Virus record (IMG/VR): IMGVR_UViG_3300020042_003994
Location: 1 to 26,051 of that record
Direction: 5' to 3' (one strand)
DNA length: 26,051 nucleotides
From: a virus
Lineage: Duplodnaviria; Caudoviricetes
The notes under the pieces were generated by a model. That model made no database searches and was not told where the DNA came from. It worked only from the letters and a program-made list of their open reading frames with translations. This document shows, one piece after another, positions 4,339-17,667 of this stretch (the first letter of the stretch is position 1; the number at the start of each line of letters is the position of its first letter). The position numbers and the translations under genes were made by a program.

Positions 4339-4396
4339 CGTAGACACATAGTGTCTACGCGTAGTTCTCAGACCGTGCACATTGTGCTTTCGGTCT
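4339..4396 (+). promoter_or_regulatory. Two tandem stem-loops in the helicase leader
   Basis: CGTAGACAC-ata-GTGTCTACG (4339-4359, perfect 9 bp), then AGACCG-t-GCAC-att-GTGC-ttt-CGGTCT (4370-4396), just 5' of the GGAG RBS at 4407-4410. Confidence 0.6.
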
Positions 4397-5971: not shown

Positions 5972-6000
5972 TTGACAATGTAAATATAAACAATTACTAT
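5972..6000 (+). promoter_or_regulatory. Strong sigma70-type promoter TTGACA-N17-TACTAT
   Basis: Perfect -35 (5972-5977), 17-nt AT-rich spacer, -10 TACTAT (5995-6000); intergenic; GGAG at 6012-6015 and ATG 6022 follow. Confidence 0.85.
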
Positions 6001-6021
6001 AGCTACTCACTGGAGAATCAC

Positions 6022-6417
6022 ATGGACATAACCGCAGACAAAATGGTTAAAGCATATATAAAAATGCGTGACCACAGATCAGCACTAAAGGCGCAGTACG
6101 AGGATGAAGACGCTAGCGTTAAAGATCAGATGGCGTTTATTGAGACCGAGTTACTAGAGTTGTGCAAGACCGTTGGCACAGACGGACTAAAGACACAGTT
6201 TGGCACGGTATCACGTTCAGTCAAAACCCGCTATGACGCAACAGATTGGGAAGCGATGCACAAGTTTATCCTTGCGCAAAGCGCACCTGACTTGCTTGAG
6301 CGGCGTGTCGCACAACGTGCAATGAAAGAGTTTATTGAAAACAACCCTGAGCTTATGCCGCCCGGTTTGAATGTCACAAGCCAGTACGCCATAACCATCA
6401 CACGGAGTCGCAAGTGA
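6022..6417 (+). CDS. Conserved phage coiled-coil protein (Gam/gp157-like architecture; function uncertain)
   Basis: N-terminal coiled coil, then GLKTQFGTV...DWEAMHKFI...DLLERRV...PPGLNV, typical of the gene preceding SSB in such phages. Confidence 0.7.
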   Translation: MDITADKMVKAYIKMRDHRSALKAQYEDEDASVKDQMAFIETELLELCKTVGTDGLKTQFGTVSRSVKTRYDATDWEAMHKFILAQSAPDLLERRVAQRAMKEFIENNPELMPPGLNVTSQYAITITRSRK

Positions 6418-6638
6418 TGCTAGAACGCCCTATGACGACCACGCAGGTCGCACACGCAATGAACATAAGCAAGACCACTGTTGCAAACCTAGCAAAGAAA
6501 GCCGTAAACCCACTACCGTCAATTCGCATTGGCAAGCATTACCGTTTCTTTTTAAGTGACGTACGAAAGTATTTTGGCATTCCCGCCGACAAACTTGTAG
6601 AATCTATTTCCCAACCAACAGGAGTTACACATGAGTGA
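6414..6638 (+). CDS. Excisionase-like / HTH_17 (MerR-type) DNA-binding protein
   Basis: MTTTQVAHAMNISKTTVANLA...LPSIRIGKHYRF; GTGATG coupling (start at 6414 or 6417). Confidence 0.8.
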   Translation: MMLERPMTTTQVAHAMNISKTTVANLAKKAVNPLPSIRIGKHYRFFLSDVRKYFGIPADKLVESISQPTGVTHE

Positions 6639-7530
6639 TCTCAGTCTTTTTAATCCGGCGAAGCTACCCGCATACCTGAAAGGTATTACGATGGATGAAA
6701 CCACCCGCAATTTGATGGGTGGTGGCGGCTCAATACCCCGCATTTCTATTCGTGGCGGCGTGTTTCGTAAGATTGTGAACGGCGAAGAAGTCATGCAGAA
6801 CGACGACCGCGCTATGAACATTATCATTGTTAAGAGCGCCTCAAACGTACACCGCACGTTCTACGCAGGTACGTACAAAGAAGGTGAGAACGCCGCACCT
6901 GATTGTTGGTCATCAAACAACGAAACACCTGATGTTATTGTGCGCAATCCGCAAAGCCCGAAGTGCGCCACATGCCCACAGAACATCAAAGGTTCAGGTC
7001 AGGGCGATAGCCGTGCATGCCGCTTTACACGCCGCCTTGCTGTCGTGCTTGATAACGACATTGCAGGTGATGTGTTGCAACTCGCACTACCCGCACAGTC
7101 TATTTTTGGTAAGGGCGAGAAAGGTAAGCTGCCCCTTGAGGCATACGTTAAGTTTCTTGCAGGGCATAACCTGCCTGTAACGGCTGTGGTGACTGAGATG
7201 CGTTTTGACACCAACTCAGCAACACCTAAGCTGACGTTCAAACCTGTGCGCCCACTTGAGCAAGACGAGTACACCGCTGTAACCGAACGTGCGGATACCA
7301 CCGAGGCGTTAGCCGCGATCACCATGTCGTTTACTCCAAAATTGGATAAGCAAAGCTCCGGAGACGCAGAGTCAGATAGCGTAGCTGCTGCGGCTGCTGC
7401 CAAGCACGCCAAAGTAGATGCGCCTGAAGAGGACGCAGCGCCCGAAGCTGCTGCACCTAAGGTACGTGGCAAGACCAAGGCTGTTGACGTTAAGTCCGTG
7501 CTAGACAACTGGGCTGACGACGACGAGTAA
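6631..7530 (+). CDS. Putative single-stranded DNA-binding protein
   Basis: PRISIRGGVFR, PDCWS, CATCPQN..GSG...RACR, PKLTFKPVR; flexible Ala/acidic tail ending WADDDE; AGGAG RBS; located in the replication module. Confidence 0.75.
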   Translation: MSDLSLFNPAKLPAYLKGITMDETTRNLMGGGGSIPRISIRGGVFRKIVNGEEVMQNDDRAMNIIIVKSASNVHRTFYAGTYKEGENAAPDCWSSNNETPDVIVRNPQSPKCATCPQNIKGSGQGDSRACRFTRRLAVVLDNDIAGDVLQLALPAQSIFGKGEKGKLPLEAYVKFLAGHNLPVTAVVTEMRFDTNSATPKLTFKPVRPLEQDEYTAVTERADTTEALAAITMSFTPKLDKQSSGDAESDSVAAAAAAKHAKVDAPEEDAAPEAAAPKVRGKTKAVDVKSVLDNWADDDE

Positions 7531-7538
7531 GCACTGCG

Positions 7539-7569
7539 GGGTCACTGCGAAAGCAGTGACCCTATGTTT
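7539..7569 (+). terminator. Perfect 10-bp hairpin with GAAA tetraloop (weak terminator/attenuator or mRNA stabiliser)
   Basis: GGGTCACTGC-GAAA-GCAGTGACCC at 7539-7562, followed by TATGTTT, immediately after the ssb stop codon. Confidence 0.7.
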
Positions 7570-7585
7570 AACCTTGGAGATATAC

Positions 7586-7804
7586 ATGAGTGGCTATTCA
7601 ATCACGCTTGCAAAGCGTATCAGCACGGCAAAGAACACCGTTGGCGGTGCATTAGGCATGTTGGCAGTGCGCAAAGAGATCGGTGTAGCGGCGATTGCAG
7701 CAAAGTTAGGTGTGTCACGCACGTGCGTATACGATTGGTTTACAGGGCAGTATGCACCCGCCCCCGATAAGCTAAAGCGATTGGAAAAATTGCTAGGCAA
7801 ATAG
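7586..7804 (+). CDS. Cro/XRE-like HTH protein
   Basis: IGVAAIAAKLGVSRTCVYDWFTGQYAP HTH; GGAG at 7576-7579 before ATG 7586. Confidence 0.82.
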   Translation: MSGYSITLAKRISTAKNTVGGALGMLAVRKEIGVAAIAAKLGVSRTCVYDWFTGQYAPAPDKLKRLEKLLGK

Positions 7805-7843: not shown

Positions 7844-10672
7844 ATGACACCTACAGAATTTCTGCGCCTTGTGCTTCCTGAATCGGGAACATACTGTCTC
7901 GCAGCCATAGCAAACAAGAAGGTTGAGCAACTATTTCTACCGGCTATTGCAGATTTTGAACCCGCGAGTGGCGCACTAGATGCGCCCGTAAATCAGTATT
8001 TTGCATGTGCATCTTTTAATGATGGCTCATCGCGCAAACAGACAAACGTTGCATGGCTCAAATCGTTTTGGTTAGATGTTGACAGCAACAAGCCTGACGG
8101 TAGCGGATACCCCACGCAAGAAGATGCAGCTAGCGCTATCGTGGCGTTCATCAAGGCTACGGGATTACCCCGTCCGGTCGTTGTAAACTCAGGCAACGGC
8201 TTTCACTTATATTGGCCTCTAGAGCAAGAGATTAGCCCTGACGTGTGGCTACCGATAGCCACGCGCTTTAAGGCAGTGTGCGACGAGCAGGGGCTTCGCG
8301 TAGACCAAACATGCACAGCGGACTCTGCACGCATACTGCGTATTCCGGGCACATACAACTACCGTGACCCAAGCAACCCCAAACCCGTTGAGATACTGAA
8401 GTCACGCAAGACCCCCATCAAGCTCATAGCGTTTGCAGAGAAGTTGGGTACGGGTGAAGCGCAAGCCCCTGATAACGTGTTGCCGTTTGCTGTGCCTAAG
8501 CACATCAAGTACAAGATGGATGACACCACCAAGACGTTTTTGCAAAACCACGTTACGCGGTTTAAGAACATCATGGTACGTACTGAGACATGCTTGCAGC
8601 TAAAGCACATCTGCGAAAACCAAGCCACAATCAGTGAACCGTTGTGGCGTGCAGGATTGTCTATTGCACAGGTCTGTATCGACCGTGACGAAGCTATCCA
8701 TGCAATGTCCGACAAACATCCCAACTACTCCCACGCAGCGACAGACGCTAAAGCAAGCAAGACTGAGGGACCCCAATTCTGCAAGACCTTTGAAGGATTA
8801 AACCCTGATGGTTGCAAAGCGTGTCCGCTTAAAGGTAAGATTACAACCCCCGTAGTGCTTGGGCGCGAGATACAACGCGCAACAGACGAAGACAACGTTG
8901 TTACAGTTGCCGACCCACTGACTAAGCAAGCCGTGCAAGAGGTTATTGAGCCGTTTCCGTTTCCGTTCTTTCGCGGTAAAGCAGGTGGGGTGTATGCGGA
9001 AATGGGTGAGGGTGAGCAGCGCACTGAAACGTGCGTGTATGAACATGATTTTTACGTAGTTAAACGTATGCAAGACCCTATGTTGGGGGAATCCATATTG
9101 GTACGTTTGAAATTGCCCCACGATGGTATTCGTGAATTTAGTCTACCGCTCCCCGTAGTGGTGGCTAAAGACAAATTTCGTGACGCTATTGCGGAGTATG
9201 GTGTTATGGCTAGTGGTAAAAACTTTGATGCACTTATGACTTATATCCAAAAATCTACTAAGAGGCTACAAATGCGTGAACGCACTGAAAACATGAGAAC
9301 CCAAATGGGTTGGACAAGCGAGGGTACATTTTTAATTGGTGATCGGGAGATCATCCCGACAGCCCTCCCGACAACTGAGATAAGCAGGTATAGCCCCCCG
9401 TCTACGGCTACGCTACGCGTGACGAGCATGCTGCAAAAGAAAGGCACGATGGATGAGTGGCGCAAGGTCGTAAACTTCTACGACACCCCCGGACTTGAAC
9501 CGTTTGCCTTTGCTGTGTTTCTGAGCTTTGGTGCGCCGCTTATGTACCTCACGCAGTACCGTGGGGGCATCTACAACCTTATGAGTAACCAATCAGGTAT
9601 TGGCAAGTCCACCGCGCTCATGGTAGCCAACAGTGTCTGGGGTCATCCGGTTGATCTGTTGTTGCAGAAGGACGACACCTACAACGCCCGCATACACCGC
9701 ATGGGCGTACTGCAACATTTGCCCATTACCATTGACGAAATCACCAACATGTCCCCGATTGAAATGTCAAACATGGTGTATGCCGCAACCGCTGCACGAG
9801 GCAAGAACCGCTTGCAAGCCAGTACGAACGCAGAGCGTGTGAACAACACCACGTGGCAAGCACCGACCATCACATCATCAAACAGCAGCGTGATTGATAA
9901 GCTCTCTGCTGAAAAAGATTTCCCTGAAGGCGAGTTGATGCGCGTAATGGAGGTGGCGGTGCAACGTACGATGCAGTTCACTAAGGTGCATACCGATGCG
10001 TTGTTTGCTAAGTTGCACGACAACCACGGGCTGGCAGGGGAGTTACTGATGACCTACGTGGTTAACAATCCTGATAACGCAAAGGCGATACTAAGCACCA
10101 TACAGGCGCAGACTGATCTGAATGCGAACTTGACCCAACGTGAACGTATCTGGTCAAACATGGCAGCTATTGCACTTGCAGGGGGTACGATTGCCGCAAC
10201 GCTAGGATTGCACAATATTGATGTTGCGCGAGTTGGGCGTTGGGCATCCGCACACTTGGCGACCGCTGCCGAGGCTACACGTGGCTCAGTAGACGGGTCA
10301 GATAGCTTGGCGGCGTACATCAACCAGAACATCAACAACGTTCTTATCATTGACGACAGCGATACAACCTACAAACCCATCGCGCTACGTGAGCCACGAG
10401 GCGAGTTGCTGATCCGCTACGAGCCAAATACCAAGACCATCTTCCTAGCATCGCAGCCGTTCAAGGCGTGGTGCGTGAAACGTCAGGTAGGTTACAACGA
10501 GTTGATCGGTGGATTGCAAGCTAGTGGGTTAGATATTAAGCTCGCCAAGAAACGCATGGCAAAGGGCACACTGCTCAGTACCCCACCTGCGAACGTGCTT
10601 GCCATCCATGACCCGCAGAGCCGTGTGTTTGATATGGACACCATAGCGGATGAGTCAAAACCCCAAGCCTAA
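7844..10672 (+). CDS. Primase-helicase fusion: RepB-like AEP primase, Cys-rich linker and DUF927-type P-loop helicase
   Basis: FWLDVD, VVNSGNGFHLYW, DSARILRIPGTYN (AEP motifs); C..F...NPDGCKACP; Walker A QSGIGKST, Walker B ITIDEIT. Confidence 0.9.
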   Translation: MTPTEFLRLVLPESGTYCLAAIANKKVEQLFLPAIADFEPASGALDAPVNQYFACASFNDGSSRKQTNVAWLKSFWLDVDSNKPDGSGYPTQEDAASAIVAFIKATGLPRPVVVNSGNGFHLYWPLEQEISPDVWLPIATRFKAVCDEQGLRVDQTCTADSARILRIPGTYNYRDPSNPKPVEILKSRKTPIKLIAFAEKLGTGEAQAPDNVLPFAVPKHIKYKMDDTTKTFLQNHVTRFKNIMVRTETCLQLKHICENQATISEPLWRAGLSIAQVCIDRDEAIHAMSDKHPNYSHAATDAKASKTEGPQFCKTFEGLNPDGCKACPLKGKITTPVVLGREIQRATDEDNVVTVADPLTKQAVQEVIEPFPFPFFRGKAGGVYAEMGEGEQRTETCVYEHDFYVVKRMQDPMLGESILVRLKLPHDGIREFSLPLPVVVAKDKFRDAIAEYGVMASGKNFDALMTYIQKSTKRLQMRERTENMRTQMGWTSEGTFLIGDREIIPTALPTTEISRYSPPSTATLRVTSMLQKKGTMDEWRKVVNFYDTPGLEPFAFAVFLSFGAPLMYLTQYRGGIYNLMSNQSGIGKSTALMVANSVWGHPVDLLLQKDDTYNARIHRMGVLQHLPITIDEITNMSPIEMSNMVYAATAARGKNRLQASTNAERVNNTTWQAPTITSSNSSVIDKLSAEKDFPEGELMRVMEVAVQRTMQFTKVHTDALFAKLHDNHGLAGELLMTYVVNNPDNAKAILSTIQAQTDLNANLTQRERIWSNMAAIALAGGTIAATLGLHNIDVARVGRWASAHLATAAEATRGSVDGSDSLAAYINQNINNVLIIDDSDTTYKPIALREPRGELLIRYEPNTKTIFLASQPFKAWCVKRQVGYNELIGGLQASGLDIKLAKKRMAKGTLLSTPPANVLAIHDPQSRVFDMDTIADESKPQA

Positions 10673-10889
10673 ACTTCCTACGGTGTGCATCGTTGATGCA
10701 GAGGGTGTTACCTATTCGTTTGATTGGGCAACATTCTCAGTGGGGGCTAGTGTGTTCATACCTTGCGTGGCAACTAACCGTATTACAGAGATGTTGGTAG
10801 GTAGTGCCCGCAAGCACCGCATCAAGCTGCACATTGCAGTGGGCGAACGCAACGGGCTTTGGGGGGTTGGTGTCTGGCGCATGCGCTGA
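10650..10889 (+). CDS. Small conserved phage protein (FDW.TF.VG.SVFIP...GVGVWR)
   Basis: Overlaps the primase 3' end; motif pattern resembles small proteins that follow the primase in such phages. Confidence 0.7.
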   Translation: MSQNPKPKLPTVCIVDAEGVTYSFDWATFSVGASVFIPCVATNRITEMLVGSARKHRIKLHIAVGERNGLWGVGVWRMR

Positions 10890-10895
10890 TATAAT
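10867..10895 (+). promoter_or_regulatory. Sigma70 promoter: TTGGTG-N17-TATAAT with extended -10 (TGaTATAAT)
   Basis: Perfect TATAAT at 10890-10895, TG at 10887-10888, TTG at the -35 position with a 17-nt spacer. Confidence 0.7.
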
Positions 10896-10901
10896 TGAGC
10901 A

Positions 10902-10965
10902 ATCAGCACGTCCATGCTGATACTCCTTGGTTGTGTTTACCCCGGTCTAGCACCGGGGGTTTTTT
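10902..10965 (+). ncRNA. Predicted ~64-nt small RNA with an anti-Shine-Dalgarno core
   Basis: Starts 7 nt after the -10; 5' hairpin ATCAGCA-cgtcca-TGCTGAT (10902-10921), unpaired ACTCCTTGGTTGTGTTTA, then an intrinsic terminator. Confidence 0.6.
10940..10965 (+). terminator. Rho-independent terminator
   Basis: CCCCGGT-ctagc-ACCGGGG, then G and TTTTTT, at the convergence of the two arms. Confidence 0.9.
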
Positions 10966-13900
10966 ATTTAGGACCCGCTTTTTGTATCGCAGAGCGCATC
11001 GTCCGCATGTCACTCAACATCACCTTTTCAATCTTGTTGATCTCATCAATGTTCTTGCGCTTTTCGGCAGAGGTCATGGCTGATGCAGGCATGTGGGTAA
11101 ACATTGCTTTTGTTGCGCGTAGCTCAGATAACACCTTGAGTTTCTGATTCACATAAGGTGCTGCGGCAAGTAAGTGGTAGTTCTTTTGCACGAACTCAGC
11201 GTACTTGACTGGGTTTTCTTTTTCAAGCATGTTCTTTGCTGCCACGGCTTCCGTGATCTTCTGACGGAAATCATAGAACTCATCCTTGACACGCGACCCT
11301 GCGGGGTTGACCAACGCAATACTCATGAATGGTATTTGCGCAAGTGAACGATCAGGTCGTGCAGGGTTCATCATCGCGTCAGTCATGAGCAGACCAGACG
11401 CACCCATTAGCCCGAACGTGCCACGTATCCAGTTATCGACCTTAATGGGTGATACGTCAGCAGCTTTACCAATTGCCTTACCAAGCTCTGAGGTGTTGGA
11501 TGTGTATTGCAGGGCGGACGGGCGTTCCTGCATGGATTTAGGCACAAGCTCTCGCTGCGTAAAGAACGAGTAGTTAGCTGTGTTCTCAATCGCTGATTTC
11601 ACTACAGGTGGGATTGGTACAGTACTGTAGTTTTTTAATCCCGCTAAAAGAGCGTCAGTTGCCGCACGCCCGACACCTTGATCTTCATCCTTTGATGCAG
11701 ATTTCCTGTAGCTCATGACACGCTCTGGGATTGACTTAAAGATAAACCCAAGTTCTGTCGGCACAGGGATTTTAATTGCAAAATTAAGCCCTAATCCTTC
11801 ATTGATTGACTTAGGCAGAATCCAATTGCGATCCCGCACTTCATCAGTCAGGTCTTCATACTGGTCATCCTCTGACATAGCTGCGGCATACAAGAATCCC
11901 AAGCCCATCATTACCAACATACGACTAATAAAGAACCTACGCGCAGCAGATTTGTTTAAGCCCGTGGACGAGTCTTTGCCGGACACCCCGCGATACATTA
12001 AGTCTAACCCCTGTGCGTACGCATTAAAGAACGGAACGGTTTGCGACATTACGTTCATAGCCGTGGATGACCCACGGCGGTTAAAGTTAATCAATTCACG
12101 CGCACGGACTATTGCAACAGCTTGGTCGCCGGTTTCTTTTAGTGTTTGGTCATACACCGCCATACGTGCAGCCATATCAGATGCTTTGGTAACCTGCTCA
12201 AGCTTGTTAATTAACGCCCGAACAAAACCGCGTTTCTCTGCACCTGTCTGATACTCAAGCGTTTCAATAGGGTTGATTGGGTTAAAGTCATAGTCCCCGA
12301 TAACACCTAAGCTTGTTAACCTACGCTCAGTAGACGATTGCTTACCAAACCACGCACCAAACCATGCACGAGGGAAGTTGTATAGAGTTTTGCCTAATGC
12401 CGCAACGGGGTTTTTAACCCCCGACAAAAACATTGCGCGTTGCGCATCGTTTATAACCTGCAACATTGCAAACTGGGGTGTTGCAGTAACGGTCGTGCGC
12501 AACAGGCGTGAGGATGCGCCGAGCAACTTCAACGCGCTTGATTTGATCTCAGGGGCTTGCACAAAGGCTGCAAAGTCATACGGGCTGTACAGTTCAAAGT
12601 AAACCGGCTCACCCTTCTCGTAGAGCTTAGGCACAACCATGCCGGAATTAGATGCTTGATTCATGGATGGCAACTTCGTAGCCATGTCCACACCCGGAGT
12701 TGCCATTAGATTCAGCACGCGCACAGCGGCTGAGTTGCGCATGGATTGGTCAACCATCCACGCCATCGTGTTCATGTAACTGTCCACGGTGTTTACTACA
12801 GGGCGCTTAAGCGACCCACGCAGCGCGGGTAATTCGCCTAGTGCAGAGATACCTTTGCGGGTTGGGCGTTGCGTGAGTGACGGGTCTTCATACACGTTTT
12901 TCTCACGATCAAACGGCACGTAATTAGTGACCGCCTTCCATAGGTCGCCACGGTCTTGACTGATGCGACCTGAAGTCACCATAGCGTCCACTGCGGACTC
13001 ACGCGAGGTGTTCATGATGCGTTGAATTTCTTGTATCTCAGGCGATGCTTGAAACACCTGCTCAAGCGCATCAATCTCAGCAAAGCTCATGTGCAGAAGA
13101 ATTTTCTTTTCACGTTCTTTATCGGCTTTATCAAACTCGCCACGTGCTTCATACGCTTGGGCAAGTTTTTCCCTATCTGCGTTTTCTTTGCGCAAATCAA
13201 ACAGGCGCATACCTTCTAGGACGGTTGCAACTTTGCCTTTGGTGACGTTGTAGGCTTCGTTGTTCTTCTTAGACAGTGCGTCAATATCTTTGACCACCTG
13301 CTGCGCCGACATTTCTTTGCCGTTGGCATCTTTAAGTTGATAGCTTTCCCAGAAGCCATCCTTGTTCATGCGCAAGCCACCTTGCCTGAACACATCAAGT
13401 GCCACACGTGCGTGGTCAAAGGCTTGCCGAATAAACTGCACGGGGTTTACATCACCAAACGAATCACGCACGCCCTGATCGAAACGCGCACCGAGCTTGG
13501 TAGCGATTGGCGCAAACACGTCCACAGTCTTTTGGCGGAACCAATCTGTCCAGCTAATATCATTTTGCGCTTGCACGGCAGCAAACTGCGTCATGGCTGT
13601 ACGCTGTGGCTGCGACTTGGCTTGGTTAATGCTGTTCCATGTAGCAGGTGTGATTTGCCCCACAGGAGTGTTAATGCTCTGCGAGGTTTGCATGATGGTT
13701 GACTCATCCATCTGCTGTTGGTCTACGAGTGACTCTTCACCACTAATGTCATTAACGTCAGTCGGCGTTTGGTTGTATGCGGATTTGATTTGATTTGGTT
13801 CAAACGCCACAATGTGTCGCCCACCATCAATCAACCCGTCATACCCACCAACTTGAAACACACGTTGCATTGCGTCTGTTGGAAAAGATATGTTAGGAAA

Positions 13901-16900
13901 GGGCATCCCACCCCGTGCAGCTTTTTCTTTAAAAAGTTTGACCTTTGACTGTATCCAATCAAACCCTAAATTTGGATTGTCTTTTCGCAACTCATCTCTG
14001 AATTGCATCACCATTTCATTGGTAATCTTGTTTTTTCCGGTTAGATTAAACGGATTTTTTACATTTAGATAGACCGGAACAACATTAGCATTTTCGTCGT
14101 TGGTAGCATAATCACTTGCTTCTTTTGGGTCAGAAGTAAAGTAAAACCCATCAGGCATGCTAGTGCGATTTTTCTTTTCTGATATTTTAAATTCACTGAT
14201 GTTGCCGGTCGTGCCGTGATACATCGCCTTCGGTGTGCCATCTTCATTGACAATCTTACTACCCTTAAACCACTTCTTAAACTCAGGTGTGTCGGGCGCG
14301 GTGGGTTTTGTTTCTGCTAGTGACTCTTCATAGCGCACGCGACTATTGCCCGCTGCTCTGTCTGCGACAGCGCCTTGCCACATCACGGGGTTAGCAGGAC
14401 TCATTGAATTAAGGAAATCCGCAACGCTTGTTGCTGGATTAAACTGCTTGCCTGTAACCGCTGCCACAAGTGCCCGCATCTGTTTAGCAACGGCTTGGAA
14501 GAACTTGGCTACAAGGCTTGTAGCTTTAGCGTCTGTGGTTGCCCAACGCGAAACGTTATCCGCAAACCATTCAGGAAAGCTCGCCCAATACGATTCAAAA
14601 TTAGGGTTGCCTTCCCCATCGGTAATGTTTTGTGCGGGTGAAGCTAAGGTTGCAGGCGAAACATTTGCAAGATTTAATGCGGCTGTTTCACGATTGCGCA
14701 GGGAGTTCATGAACTGCTCAACGCTCATCTTGCGTGCGGCGTCTCGCCATGCCGTGTACTCTTTTACAATAGCGTCTTTCGTAGCAAATCGCGCATGCAC
14801 AAAGGATGTGTACTCAATGCCATGCCCAAGCTCATGCGCAATGGTCTCAATCGCCTTAGCTTCAGACAACGTAGGATCAAGGTATATAGCAAGGGTATCT
14901 TGGCGTGGTCCAAACGGTATAAGCATGCCGTTTCTGCTTGCGCTGTTACCGGCTGTTGACAACGTGCCGTATGCACCGTGCAGATGATACTTATCATTAT
15001 TGCCAACTAAGTCCTTGCCCGCTACTAAGAACAGATTTACATCACCCATGCCAAGCTTCTGCATAAGCGCAGTTAGGTATTGCGTGTAGCGTGGGTCAAC
15101 GTTCTCTGTGGCGACTACGTTATTTGTAGCATTTGTAAACGGTCCATCGGGAAACTGTGTAAGCAAGGCGTTCTCACGCGCCTCAATTAGATTACGTGCT
15201 TCAACCAACTCCCGCACGTCCTGTGGCGTTAACCCCAACGTGCCTTGATTAACAAAACTTAGTTGCGATATGTCTTCCTTAACAATCATCGTGGCGGTCA
15301 TGGGTCTGTACTGAATTACCCCATTGTTTAACTGCACCCGTACCAACCCTTTCGTAGCATCTGCGTACACCACATCACCGTTCCCAATATACGGATTAGT
15401 GGTCTGCGCCCAAGACTCAATCTGCCCAGACTCAACACGCTGCTCAACAGGCGATTTGGGAGGAGGGGGCGGTGGTGTAGGTGCAACGGGTGCAGCCGCT
15501 TTAGTTGCCTTCGCTGCCTTCGGTTGTTTAGTTGCCTTAGACGCAGGCGCGGGTGCAGCCGCAGGTGTAGCGGCTAGGGGGAACCGTGCAAGATATCTGT
15601 CGATATTCGCCTTAATGCGGTCACTTCTAGACGCAGCACGATAAGCCTCAAGTGCTTGGCGTACAAACGCACCGTCCGTCGGATCGGTGATGTCCTTGCC
15701 GTTAACGTCCACGTTCCTGCGGATAGCCGCAGTGGGTCCGATGCCGAGCGCCCTCCACACGGTCGCATCAATGACCGGAGGCGCATTGTCAGGTGTGACA
15801 GCCGTAGGCGGTGTAATAGGCGCAGCAGGGGGCGTAGGGGGCGCTGGAGGGGTGATAGGCGCAGCGGGCGGTGTAGGTGGTGCGTCTTGCACCAACGGTT
15901 GTGGCTCGCCTAAGTCTAAGCCACCCTGACCCTCAGGCGCGGGTTGTGCAATATGTTGATCGTAGAACGCTTGGATGGCAACTTTCGTCTCAGGTCTAAC
16001 GTTCTTGTTCTCAAGTGCCGTGGCAATAAACTGCGCTGCCGCCGTGCGGTCAGCCTGCTGTGTGAGGTCAAGTTTCTTTAGCTGTTGTGCAACGGGCGCA
16101 CTGGCAGGGATACCCGCTGCCTTAACCAAGGCACTTGTCGTGGGCGCAGGAGCCGCAGGTGCGGCGGGCGTAGCTTGTGTAGGCTCTGCACTAGGCACAA
16201 CAGGTAACGCGCCCTGTGTGCCCGCAGGTACAGCCTCTGCGGTTTTAATCAGCTTGTTTAACTCACGGATACGTGCTGCCATCTGCGAACTAACCGCCCT
16301 GCTCTCTGGGGTATCAGGCAAGTCGTTTAGTTGTTGCAGCAAGCCATCGCGCTCTGCGCGGTGTTGTTGTGTAGATTGCGTGGCATCTAACGCCTGCGTC
16401 ATTGGTGTAGCGGTACTGCCCATTGGCATGGGTGCAGCAGGTGTGGGTTCTTCTGCTTTTGGGCGACCGTAGGCATCAAAGCCTGCCCTACGCTCTGGCA
16501 ACTCACCGCCTTGCACCGTCTCAGTGGGTGCTACGCGTCTGCCGCCTTCTAGGTTTAGACCGAACTGACCCTCAGGGGTTTCTTTTTGCCCAATGAACGG
16601 AGCTTGTGCAGCCTTTGCCGCCTCTTGCTCATCGCGCTGCGCACGCATGTACCCAAGGGTTTGTTGTTCTTTCTCGCGCTCTGCTTTGTCTTCTGGGGAT
16701 AGTTCCTGCCCCTTTGCGGCAGCTTCCGCGTCTTTGCCACGTGCACGGTATTCCCGCACACCCTTGACCCCTGCACCCAACCCGCCTTCTACAATAGCGC
16801 CTTCGACTATGGACTCAAGCAACTCTGTTTTATCAATACCCCGCTTGGTGTCAAACGTACCACCCAAGTACCCGATGCCTTCTTCTGCACCGCCTGTAGC

Positions 16901-17656
16901 CGACTGTAGCGCACCCTCTTTTAAGATACGCGTACCGGCGTTTTTACCCGATATGTTTGCGCCTTTAAGCAATCGTTTTGTGGTGAATTGCTCTAATTTA
17001 GCTTCGGCTACTGCCGCTGCGGTTGCAAGGGTTACGTCTTTAACAGTCAGGTCTTCGTATGCTTTGCTGTCGTTTTTAATACGCTCATTAAGGATTTCAT
17101 TTGTTCGCGTTGCCATGTACGCCGGAGACGCCAAGACCGCCGCAGCCATGTCGGGAGATGACGAAATCACACGCTCTGCAATAAACGGTATTACCTTTAA
17201 CGGATTGTCACCAAGATCACTTAGCTTGGTTGATGGTTGGTAGCCGAGGCTTGCATCCCAATCGCGCAGTTGATCCGCAACCTTAAACATAGGTTCAAGT
17301 TGGCGTTTATTCTTAATATCTTCTGGGGATATGCCTGATAGCGGCAGTTTGGTTTCAAGAAAATCACCTATAGGCTCCGCCACCCGCGCAACACCTTCGA
17401 TCAGTGACCCCAAGCCCGCAGCCGCACGCCCCGCCATACCCACCAACGGATTGCTAGTAGGGGTTGCAGCACGCGCAATAGCCGCACGCTTGTCGGCATA
17501 GTCGTACCCACCGGCTTCTGTAGGAGACACCCACGCATCATTCACAAGGTAAGCATTGGCTCCCGCCGCGTTCTTAGCAGTTTGCGATGGGGCTACCCAC
17601 TGGTTATCGACCAAGAAGACAACTTCGCCCGTGGTAGGATTAACTGCACGTTCCAT
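10964..17656 (-). CDS. Large polyvalent / internal virion protein (~2230 aa): zincin metallopeptidase, ART-PolyVal-like and C-terminal LPD38-like domains
   Basis: AAAGGA RBS 7 nt before ATG 17656; IAHELGH...PEWFAD (HExxH+E); FKKWF..SKIV..DG.P..MYHGT...GFYFT...PVYL..KNP...GYDG; NF.R.G, PFFNAY.QG, YEDL...RDRNW.LP...KIPVP.ELG (LPD38-like). Confidence 0.88.
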   Translation of the reverse strand: MERAVNPTTGEVVFLVDNQWVAPSQTAKNAAGANAYLVNDAWVSPTEAGGYDYADKRAAIARAATPTSNPLVGMAGRAAAGLGSLIEGVARVAEPIGDFLETKLPLSGISPEDIKNKRQLEPMFKVADQLRDWDASLGYQPSTKLSDLGDNPLKVIPFIAERVISSSPDMAAAVLASPAYMATRTNEILNERIKNDSKAYEDLTVKDVTLATAAAVAEAKLEQFTTKRLLKGANISGKNAGTRILKEGALQSATGGAEEGIGYLGGTFDTKRGIDKTELLESIVEGAIVEGGLGAGVKGVREYRARGKDAEAAAKGQELSPEDKAEREKEQQTLGYMRAQRDEQEAAKAAQAPFIGQKETPEGQFGLNLEGGRRVAPTETVQGGELPERRAGFDAYGRPKAEEPTPAAPMPMGSTATPMTQALDATQSTQQHRAERDGLLQQLNDLPDTPESRAVSSQMAARIRELNKLIKTAEAVPAGTQGALPVVPSAEPTQATPAAPAAPAPTTSALVKAAGIPASAPVAQQLKKLDLTQQADRTAAAQFIATALENKNVRPETKVAIQAFYDQHIAQPAPEGQGGLDLGEPQPLVQDAPPTPPAAPITPPAPPTPPAAPITPPTAVTPDNAPPVIDATVWRALGIGPTAAIRRNVDVNGKDITDPTDGAFVRQALEAYRAASRSDRIKANIDRYLARFPLAATPAAAPAPASKATKQPKAAKATKAAAPVAPTPPPPPPKSPVEQRVESGQIESWAQTTNPYIGNGDVVYADATKGLVRVQLNNGVIQYRPMTATMIVKEDISQLSFVNQGTLGLTPQDVRELVEARNLIEARENALLTQFPDGPFTNATNNVVATENVDPRYTQYLTALMQKLGMGDVNLFLVAGKDLVGNNDKYHLHGAYGTLSTAGNSASRNGMLIPFGPRQDTLAIYLDPTLSEAKAIETIAHELGHGIEYTSFVHARFATKDAIVKEYTAWRDAARKMSVEQFMNSLRNRETAALNLANVSPATLASPAQNITDGEGNPNFESYWASFPEWFADNVSRWATTDAKATSLVAKFFQAVAKQMRALVAAVTGKQFNPATSVADFLNSMSPANPVMWQGAVADRAAGNSRVRYEESLAETKPTAPDTPEFKKWFKGSKIVNEDGTPKAMYHGTTGNISEFKISEKKNRTSMPDGFYFTSDPKEASDYATNDENANVVPVYLNVKNPFNLTGKNKITNEMVMQFRDELRKDNPNLGFDWIQSKVKLFKEKAARGGMPFPNISFPTDAMQRVFQVGGYDGLIDGGRHIVAFEPNQIKSAYNQTPTDVNDISGEESLVDQQQMDESTIMQTSQSINTPVGQITPATWNSINQAKSQPQRTAMTQFAAVQAQNDISWTDWFRQKTVDVFAPIATKLGARFDQGVRDSFGDVNPVQFIRQAFDHARVALDVFRQGGLRMNKDGFWESYQLKDANGKEMSAQQVVKDIDALSKKNNEAYNVTKGKVATVLEGMRLFDLRKENADREKLAQAYEARGEFDKADKEREKKILLHMSFAEIDALEQVFQASPEIQEIQRIMNTSRESAVDAMVTSGRISQDRGDLWKAVTNYVPFDREKNVYEDPSLTQRPTRKGISALGELPALRGSLKRPVVNTVDSYMNTMAWMVDQSMRNSAAVRVLNLMATPGVDMATKLPSMNQASNSGMVVPKLYEKGEPVYFELYSPYDFAAFVQAPEIKSSALKLLGASSRLLRTTVTATPQFAMLQVINDAQRAMFLSGVKNPVAALGKTLYNFPRAWFGAWFGKQSSTERRLTSLGVIGDYDFNPINPIETLEYQTGAEKRGFVRALINKLEQVTKASDMAARMAVYDQTLKETGDQAVAIVRARELINFNRRGSSTAMNVMSQTVPFFNAYAQGLDLMYRGVSGKDSSTGLNKSAARRFFISRMLVMMGLGFLYAAAMSEDDQYEDLTDEVRDRNWILPKSINEGLGLNFAIKIPVPTELGFIFKSIPERVMSYRKSASKDEDQGVGRAATDALLAGLKNYSTVPIPPVVKSAIENTANYSFFTQRELVPKSMQERPSALQYTSNTSELGKAIGKAADVSPIKVDNWIRGTFGLMGASGLLMTDAMMNPARPDRSLAQIPFMSIALVNPAGSRVKDEFYDFRQKITEAVAAKNMLEKENPVKYAEFVQKNYHLLAAAPYVNQKLKVLSELRATKAMFTHMPASAMTSAEKRKNIDEINKIEKVMLSDMRTMRSAIQKAGPK
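13728..14330. repeat. Exact 12-bp direct repeat AGTGACTCTTCA (13728-13739 and 14319-14330) flanking the ART domain
   Basis: Read directly; the copies are 591 bp (197 codons) apart and both fall in EESL codons on the - strand. Confidence 0.85.
15803..15884 (-). repeat. 39-bp (13-aa) tandem duplication (PPTPPAAPITPP core) in a Pro/Ala linker
   Basis: ATAGGCGCAGC recurs at a 39-bp spacing; peptide APPTPPAAPITPPAPPTPPAAPITPP. Confidence 0.75.
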
Positions 17657-17667
17657 AGCCAATTCCT

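Follow-up and report, generated by a model that had tools for sequence, protein, structure and literature searches.

A candidate small-RNA gene where two gene arms converge

The window, the whole 26,051-nucleotide stretch of DNA analyzed here, is a 26-kb fragment of a virus record (IMG/VR record IMGVR_UViG_3300020042_003994; Caudoviricetes) in which two gene arms converge on a short cassette (10902-10965). The cassette probably encodes a small phage RNA. By base pairing, this RNA is predicted to block translation starts of replication genes in the same phage genome, above all the ribosome-binding site of the gene starting at 6022 (gene 6022). The plus-strand arm codes for a family-A polymerase, a PD-(D/E)XK nuclease, an SNF2 helicase, gene 6022, a helix-turn-helix (HTH) gene, a 299-amino-acid (aa) gene, a second HTH gene, a DUF927 primase, and finally orf79 (10650..10889, plus strand), a conserved 79-aa open reading frame (ORF) of unknown function whose predicted fold found no PDB match and whose 3′ end contains the cassette promoter. 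The minus-strand virion arm ends with the convergent gene of an LPD38/ART-PolyVal protein (10964..17662, minus strand; 2,232 aa), within which an ART-PolyVal ADP-ribosyltransferase domain is recognized. The gap between the arms described in an earlier note on this DNA is present, and the two stop codons set its length at 74 bp (10890-10963) rather than 75 bp.

The predicted promoter has a weak −35-like hexamer within orf79, TTGGTG (10867..10872, plus strand), which has three of the six consensus bases and is not conserved in distant relatives. It is followed after 17 nt by an extended −10, TGaTATAAT (10887..10895, plus strand; TGa at 10887-89 and TATAAT at 10890-95), of which the TGA doubles as the orf79 stop codon; TGnTATAAT occurs only this once in the 26 kb, both strands scanned. 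The promoter proposed earlier thus stands in its extended −10 and its spacing and is qualified by a −35 that is weak and lies in coding sequence; the promoter scanner, with a threshold of four of six consensus bases at −35, does not list it because this −35 matches only three. A start placed from the −10 predicts a small RNA of ∼64 nt (10902..10965, plus strand), composed of a 7-bp 5′ hairpin (10902..10921, plus strand; 10902-08 with 10915-21), an unpaired seed ACTCCTTGGTTGTGTTTA (10922..10939, plus strand) with an anti-Shine-Dalgarno (anti-SD) CUCCUU and a U-rich linker, and an intrinsic terminator (10940..10966, plus strand; 7-bp stem at 10940-58, T run at 10960-65) whose end runs into the stop codon with which the late gene on the opposite strand terminates. 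Sequence reading and folding place the promoter parts, hairpin, unpaired CUCCUU core, and terminator just where the earlier note had them, and the fold reproduces hairpin, unpaired core, and terminator exactly (−21.9 kcal/mol, z = −2.4; 4 of 200 shuffles are equally good). Within the 5′ hairpin, the loop and 3′ strand can base pair with gene 6022 at its spacer and start codon.

Conservation of the cassette among relatives

Two sets of relatives were compared. Set 1 comprises 80 loci together with L209, L217, and the window (83 in all), 78 of which have a terminator after orf79; 53 nonredundant loci have a target site, and 52, kept after dropping the misparsed L377, form 13 lineages clustered at 65% primase identity. 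Set 2 was fetched after set 1 via gene 6022 and comprises 163 loci, 75 of which extend past orf79; 57 of these have the cassette and 18 are unparsed, and 50 nonredundant loci were kept, representing 27 lineages. RNA bodies identical to those in set 1 and three known repeats were excluded from set 2, in which sister lineages of set 1 may remain.

The cassette is a real, conserved feature. An extended −10 lies within −14 to +30 of the orf79 stop in 11 of 13 lineages in set 1 and 14 of 27 in set 2, compared with none of 10 to 13 and 0 to 5 of 19 to 27, respectively, after seven other control genes. It is found at offsets of −5, 0, +6 to +8, and +17 from the stop codon and is therefore independent of it. 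CUCC or UUCCU is within the RNA body in 12/13 and 27/27 lineages, and a body hairpin in 11/13 and 24/27; the median predicted length in the relatives is 71 to 72 nt. The anti-SD half of the core proposed in the earlier note is thus found in nearly all lineages, whereas the anti-start half (CAT) is not family-wide, being restricted to some lineages, where it mirrors the target's own start. Both stems have compensatory changes, as the suggested covariation check was to look for, with two-sided changes at 4 of 14 pairs among eight close sequences (3 of 7 pairs in the 5′ hairpin) and at 5 of 13 pairs among 14 sequences of a second clade, counts that kinship among the sequences inflates. The earlier note would have given up its proposal had homologous loci kept a terminator alone; they retain both the −10 and CUCC. 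In some lineages (L013/L357, L033, L037, L045, and L054) the cassette is shortened and lacks a clear −10, or an extra gene follows orf79. Pattern scans returned mostly ordinary gene starts, and among 25 viral matches the full cassette is present only at loci already known through the 79-aa ORF.

Covariation of the seed with replication-gene ribosome-binding sites

Gene 6022 (6022..6417, plus strand; 131 aa) is 4.9 kb upstream of the cassette and is the first gene behind a conserved sigma-70-type promoter, TTGACA-17-TACTAT (5972..6000, plus strand), which heads the predicted target operon; a similar promoter precedes gene 6022 in 9/13 and 19/27 lineages, compared with 0 or 1 for six other genes. 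The main predicted target covers its Shine-Dalgarno (SD) sequence, spacer, and first codons (6012..6027, plus strand; 15 bp with one bulge and one mismatch). A second is the ribosome-binding site (6612..6625, plus strand; 12 bp with a 2-nt bulge) of the 299-aa gene (6631..7530, plus strand; phrog_27714), whose product we infer to be SSB-like from its position and acidic C terminus; in this duplex the 5′ hairpin remains closed, and 2 of 500 shuffled bodies pair equally well. The ribosome-binding site of the HTH_3 gene (7586..7804, plus strand; 72 aa) is a weaker predicted target in the window (−12.1 kcal/mol). Of the 60 SD-bearing candidate starts in the window, few rank higher than those of gene 6022 (−14.1) and of the SSB-like gene (−13.3): two starts overlapping the cassette, an internal primase ATG, and an ATG at 266 are above them; a plain duplex scan of the whole window is uninformative.

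The bases flanking CUCC vary by lineage and mirror the ribosome-binding site of that lineage's own 6022 orthologue. Cofolding energies of own and swapped pairs were compared after removing row and column effects, with lineages permuted 20,000 times (floor P = 5e−5) and with target start codons picked by alignment position and SD strength, independent of the RNA; the lineages are related, and the permutation P values are optimistic as a consequence. For gene 6022, own pairs average −10.8 against −7.5 kcal/mol for swapped pairs in set 1 and −13.0 against −7.9 kcal/mol in set 2 (P = 5e−5 each). The SSB-like gene (P = 2.5e−4 in set 1 and 5e−5 in set 2) and the helicase gene (P = 0.02 and 5e−5) follow, the primase (P = 0.003 and 0.07) and polymerase (P = 0.11 and 0.04) genes give values below 0.05 in one set each, and the exonuclease gene, g4033, and orf79 are not significant (0.06 to 0.8 for the nonsignificant genes of set 1; 0.07 to 0.19 for the others of set 2). 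Matches beyond the SD core number 2.7 versus 1.3 nt for gene 6022 in set 1 and 3.2 versus 1.1 in set 2 (P = 5e−5 in both), and contiguous matches beyond the core are also significant for the helicase gene (P = 0.002 and 0.005). Two late-gene controls give P = 0.40 and 0.69 for own against swapped pairing, against 0.0001 for gene 6022 in the same loci. Gene 6022 is the chief predicted target, with a site that varies together with the RNA core from one relative to the next.

Individual loci illustrate this correspondence. Six (L384, L391, L400, L410, L414, and L421) have perfect complements of 17 to 18 nt, and in L397, L416, and L419 an extra U in the RNA is matched by an extra A in the SSB-like site. 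L402 (821-1102) and L419 have an additional 93-aa gene of unknown function directly behind the early promoter, ahead of the 6022 orthologue, and here the matching ribosome-binding site belongs to the inserted gene. The longest antisense match to the 6022 site anywhere in the locus falls in the cassette in 25 of 50 set 2 loci, where the cassette is 0.56% of locus length, and in 19 of 50 in set 1. Specificity is also seen when loci of one lineage are compared with each other (P = 0.0006, 57 loci), an effect due to a few lineages that do not include the window's own. When starts were scored across six near-complete genomes, the early strand accounted for 31 of the top 36, although only 127 of the 276 SD-bearing genes lie on it. 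The comparative evidence thus supports well the earlier proposal of a trans-acting anti-SD regulator, putatively a timing switch, of replication genes, and predicted targets can be named: gene 6022 and the SSB-like gene, each at its ribosome-binding site, and in relatives also that of the helicase gene.

Relocation of the cassette and alternative explanations

The 18 unparsed loci of set 2 are informative about whether the core acts in cis or in trans. Three combine an extended −10 with a terminator of atypical form. In the other 15 there is no gap at the arm junction; 10 of these reach far enough upstream, and nine (L451, L452, L470, L471, L477, L506, L527, L532, and L540), in which the arms meet without a gap, carry a like cassette before the helicase gene. 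The relocated cassette is closed by its own terminator and is 1.6 to 2.0 kb upstream of gene 6022 and its promoter, and a similar element precedes the helicase gene in 1 of 42 junction-type loci. A single copy in either of two places is better fitted by a diffusible RNA than by transcript fold-back or a DNA bracket, and relocation therefore favors a free RNA. Own pairs have a small advantage over the clade as a whole and a strong one in L527, L506, and L470. In the window, the corresponding place before the helicase gene is occupied by a palindromic hairpin (4339-4359).

One alternative is action in cis: the core would end a long 6022-to-orf79 transcript that folds onto its own leader, or would be a processed piece of that transcript with no separate promoter. 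The cassette does terminate the operon whose first gene matches it, the geometry reported for CarZ in PMC7398697 is the same, the −35 is weak, and the strict extended −10 is absent in 13 of 27 set 2 lineages, an absence that also weighs against a dedicated small-RNA gene. This explanation is nonetheless unlikely, as the extended −10 persists although its register to the stop codon shifts, with at least five registers seen, and one clade has the cassette, with its own terminator, 1.6 to 2.0 kb upstream of the target promoter. A match at the DNA level, or a historical one, has similarly little probability: here no regulatory RNA would be made, and the core next to the terminator would be either a protein-binding site or a ribosome-binding site typical of the lineage that was copied in inverted orientation. 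Early ribosome-binding sites are alike within a lineage, a binding protein could also cause such likeness, the predicted RNA is without transcript support, and mismatches have no G-U bias, but the copy is always antisense and always between a conserved −10 and a same-strand terminator, with a covarying 5′ hairpin, and this arrangement is kept after relocation, whereas the distant cultured relative RHph_TM3_14A has the terminator alone at its arm junction. It is highly improbable that a small minus-strand gene (10915-10712), transcribed by read-through from the late arm, starts its translation at this site. The AAGGAG-N7-ATG that the earlier note read on the minus strand does exist, and the window shares with three close relatives the 67-aa frame that follows it; however, the frame is 29 and 40 aa and shifted in two other close relatives, is 1 to 100 aa or absent elsewhere, and has no PHROG or Pfam match, and as a gene candidate (10712..10915, minus strand) it was rejected, largely refuted by this nonconservation. 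A search of sequencing runs gave two metatranscriptome contig sets containing 6 to 7% of the sequence words searched for. One RNA contig of 208 nt (10891-11097), which could speak for a minus-strand gene, starts 11 nt before the predicted +1 and enters the late gene, and other contigs fall elsewhere. Contigs give neither strand nor ends and may be DNA, so that these data weigh neither for nor against the RNA.

Silencing of host mRNAs, offered by the earlier note as a second possible role, finds no real support, and it is quite improbable that this is the main role, whether as a general anti-SD toxic RNA or against a specific gene such as prkA, with the phage-site match secondary. Subthreshold Rfam likeness to the Betaproteobacteria toxic small RNA (at most 31.6 of 50 bits) and to SorX (27.5 of 46.6 bits) points this way, as do 26 of 120 genome matches to the hairpin-seed pattern that are prkA-type starts (Pfam check on 1 of the 26), found in Roseateles/Rhizobacter-group genomes among the matches listed. 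However, ∼300 matches to an 18-base pattern with eight variants in 596 Gb are near a rough chance estimate of ∼140 before any SD/ATG bias, the prkA matches come from one clade, and from lineage to lineage the seed follows precisely the differences in the phage's own sites. The match to host prkA is near chance level and was set aside as a target; it is possibly a host target if the host belongs to that group, and otherwise chance. The prkA start in L230 (Pfam checked) and 25 other loci among L227-L346 are complementary to the loop and seed of the window RNA over about 14 plus 5 bases.

Several further results weigh against a small RNA directed at replication genes, beyond the optimism of the permutation P values. 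The 6022 duplex in the window is moderate (−14.1 kcal/mol, with 13 of 500 shuffled bodies equally good), the window's lineage has no within-lineage specificity (−17.3 versus −17.3), and several lineages pair poorly, the cognate RNA ranking 13 of 13, or 16, 19, and 27 of 27. The SSB-like signal beyond the SD core is present only in set 1 (P = 0.22 in set 2), the cognate advantage of the relocated cassettes is small (−11.7 versus −10.3 and −9.5), and the early-versus-late excess reaches P < 0.05 in just two of six genomes. Mismatches compatible and not compatible with G-U pairing number 6.2 versus 5.6 and 11.3 versus 11.2 for gene 6022, and 4.1 versus 0.5 in one set but 7.0 versus 15.3 in the other for the SSB-like gene; the asymmetry is mixed in a first analysis and null in a later one, and because there is no G-U bias, this test does not demonstrate pairing at the RNA level.

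Predicted mode of action and relation to known RNAs

As a small-RNA gene, the cassette would be transcribed by host sigma-70 polymerase from the extended −10 to the terminator, with read-through and processing of the 6022-to-primase operon as a possible additional source. The unpaired CUCC would nucleate on the target GGAG, and the 5′ hairpin would then open as its 3′ strand and loop, the mirrors of spacer and start codon, join the duplex, such that only sites with the lineage's own sequence would be held firmly. 30S subunits could no longer load, and with rising RNA levels the output of Gam-like, SSB-like, and helicase proteins would be capped, with either negative feedback or an early or late shut-off as the outcome for the products of the strongest early unit. 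U-rich linkers and tails suit Hfq, and by analogy a role for Hfq is plausible. The gene 6022 product may be a Gam/Gp157-like DNA-end protector, since its predicted fold is weakly like Gp157 and Mu-Gam host-nuclease inhibitors (E values of 1.5e−3 and 2.8e−3); the model has no PDB match, and DUF7307 is annotated in 14% of one Atlas cluster. The PHROG label of this gene, minor head protein, looks doubtful for a gene that heads a replication operon and whose model is weakly Gp157/Gam-like.

The Rfam search suggested in the earlier note finds no family at its cutoff in the window or at the relatives' cassettes, and matches are all subthreshold. SorX (RF02784, cutoff 46.6 bits) is the best match in the window, at 21.7 bits (E = 0.003, 201 bases), and reaches 27.5 bits in the best relative; RF02278 (cutoff 50 bits) scores 13 in the window and 31.6 in the best relative (17 family loci), with none at the cutoff in 24 more loci. 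There is no match to the C4 model in the window or in the relatives scanned. RF02278 toxic small RNAs have an anti-SD mode of action. They resemble the cassette in length (55 to 90 nt), CU-rich core, and terminator flank, with the best relatives at 29 to 32 bits, but are described in PMC4603805 as chromosomal and of unknown function, whereas the cassette seed is variable and tracks phage sites. SorX of Rhodobacter sphaeroides likewise has a hairpin, a CU-rich single strand, and a terminator, but is described in PMC9438474 as processed from a 3′ untranslated region and repressing the host gene potA.

Among the closest functional parallels are CarZ and OppZ of Vibrio cholerae, small RNAs from operon 3′ ends that pair with a translation start in the same operon, the first gene in the case of CarZ, and give negative feedback (PMC7398697). 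Like them, the cassette is at the 3′ end of the targeted operon in the window and most lineages, with operon continuity inferred, though not in the relocated clade. By the same source, CarZ and OppZ are RNase E products without promoters of their own. The cassette, by contrast, belongs to phages, changes place between clades, and is predicted to have more than one target; its conserved extended −10 argues for a promoter of its own.

Among phage RNAs, P22 sar, lambda OOP, and aQ are cis-encoded, perfectly complementary, and single-target, whereas the RNA of the cassette is predicted to pair only in part with its target, at a distance of 4.9 kb. It would share with them small size, an own promoter, and the lowering of a phage gene's expression that sections of PMC12197685 present for them. 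The same sections describe c4 of P1/P7 as a phage RNA that pairs around a phage-gene ribosome-binding site from a distance, with RNA and target differences setting kin specificity; c4 controls an antirepressor in temperate phages, whereas the predicted targets here are replication genes of phages in which no tyrosine integrase was found in 5 of 5 genomes. In the account of those sections, most phage small RNAs whose action is known belong to temperate phages, and their targets are either genes they overlap or genes of the host. The cassette does not overlap its predicted targets on the opposite strand as a cis-antisense RNA would; they are 4.3 to 4.9 kb off, and the minus-strand frame is not conserved. 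It has the sequence marks of a trans-acting small RNA, namely its own predicted promoter, intrinsic terminator, 50- to 100-nt length, and conservation, together with an exposed seed complementary to a distant ribosome-binding site and compensatory change; the G-U bias test is negative. No matching motif is found in passages of PMC5737381.

The cassette represents a new family of anti-ribosome-site RNA, likely trans-acting, with named phage targets. No description of the element was found in the literature, in a search whose scope excluded most subscription papers and catalogues of predicted phage RNAs, so that an unnamed prior prediction is possible. Across the 40 lineage clusters, from two sets that possibly overlap, the predicted RNA and remote ribosome-binding sites have undergone matching changes in nature, and targets can therefore be named without experiment; these changes suggest that an abundant phage family, as yet uncultured, shuts off its replication genes posttranscriptionally, and they offer natural orthogonal RNA-leader pairs. 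A broader view, tentative and on balance doubtful, is that one portable, reprogrammable antisense RNA runs the early-to-late switch in this very large and apparently nonintegrating aquatic phage family. Early genes would carry a lineage-private ribosome-site barcode and the RNA its mirror, accumulated RNA would also shut down superinfecting close kin and not other lineages (RNA-encoded heteroimmunity), and the scaffold may derive from host toxic small-RNA or SorX-like genes.

The phage family and other features

Relatives of the window account for 591 of 599 pattern matches in the scanned eighth of IMG/VR, giving a family estimate of ∼4,900 stretches, and complete members are about 60 to 68 kb. 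GTDB genomes give only four pattern matches, all on contigs of metagenome-assembled genomes shorter than 17 kb, and a tyrosine integrase is present in none of five near-complete genomes; the family is large, aquatic, uncultured, and likely nonintegrating. Cultured relatives (Rollin, the RHph_TM3_14A group, and Xp15) are distant, and the cassette was not found in the stretches examined of Rollin and RHph_TM3_14A. In the window, a domain search identifies the protein preceding orf79 as primase/helicase-like (7844..10672, plus strand; DUF927), and a strong hairpin (7538-7561) directly follows the SSB-like gene and precedes the HTH_3 gene (7586-7804). Apart from the cassette, an int-alpA RNA (RF02996) scores above its cutoff directly 5′ of the primase gene in three relatives (L496:2355-2427, L480:4663-4730, and L484:3457-3524).

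A further element was encountered in 50 of 119 IMG/VR loci with a 16-base motif (L081-L199; e.g., L100, L119, L141, and L156). It has no Rfam match at E ≤ 0.1 in 20 loci, and the ORFs to whose starts it is antisense, presumably homing nucleases, have no Pfam match on two 99-aa pieces. A TAAATA/TATATA box is followed by the complement of a start codon and SD within a hairpin, with CUCCUU in the hairpin loop and a second hairpin thereafter, and the element is a candidate for a separate RNA family on the basis of these sequence features.

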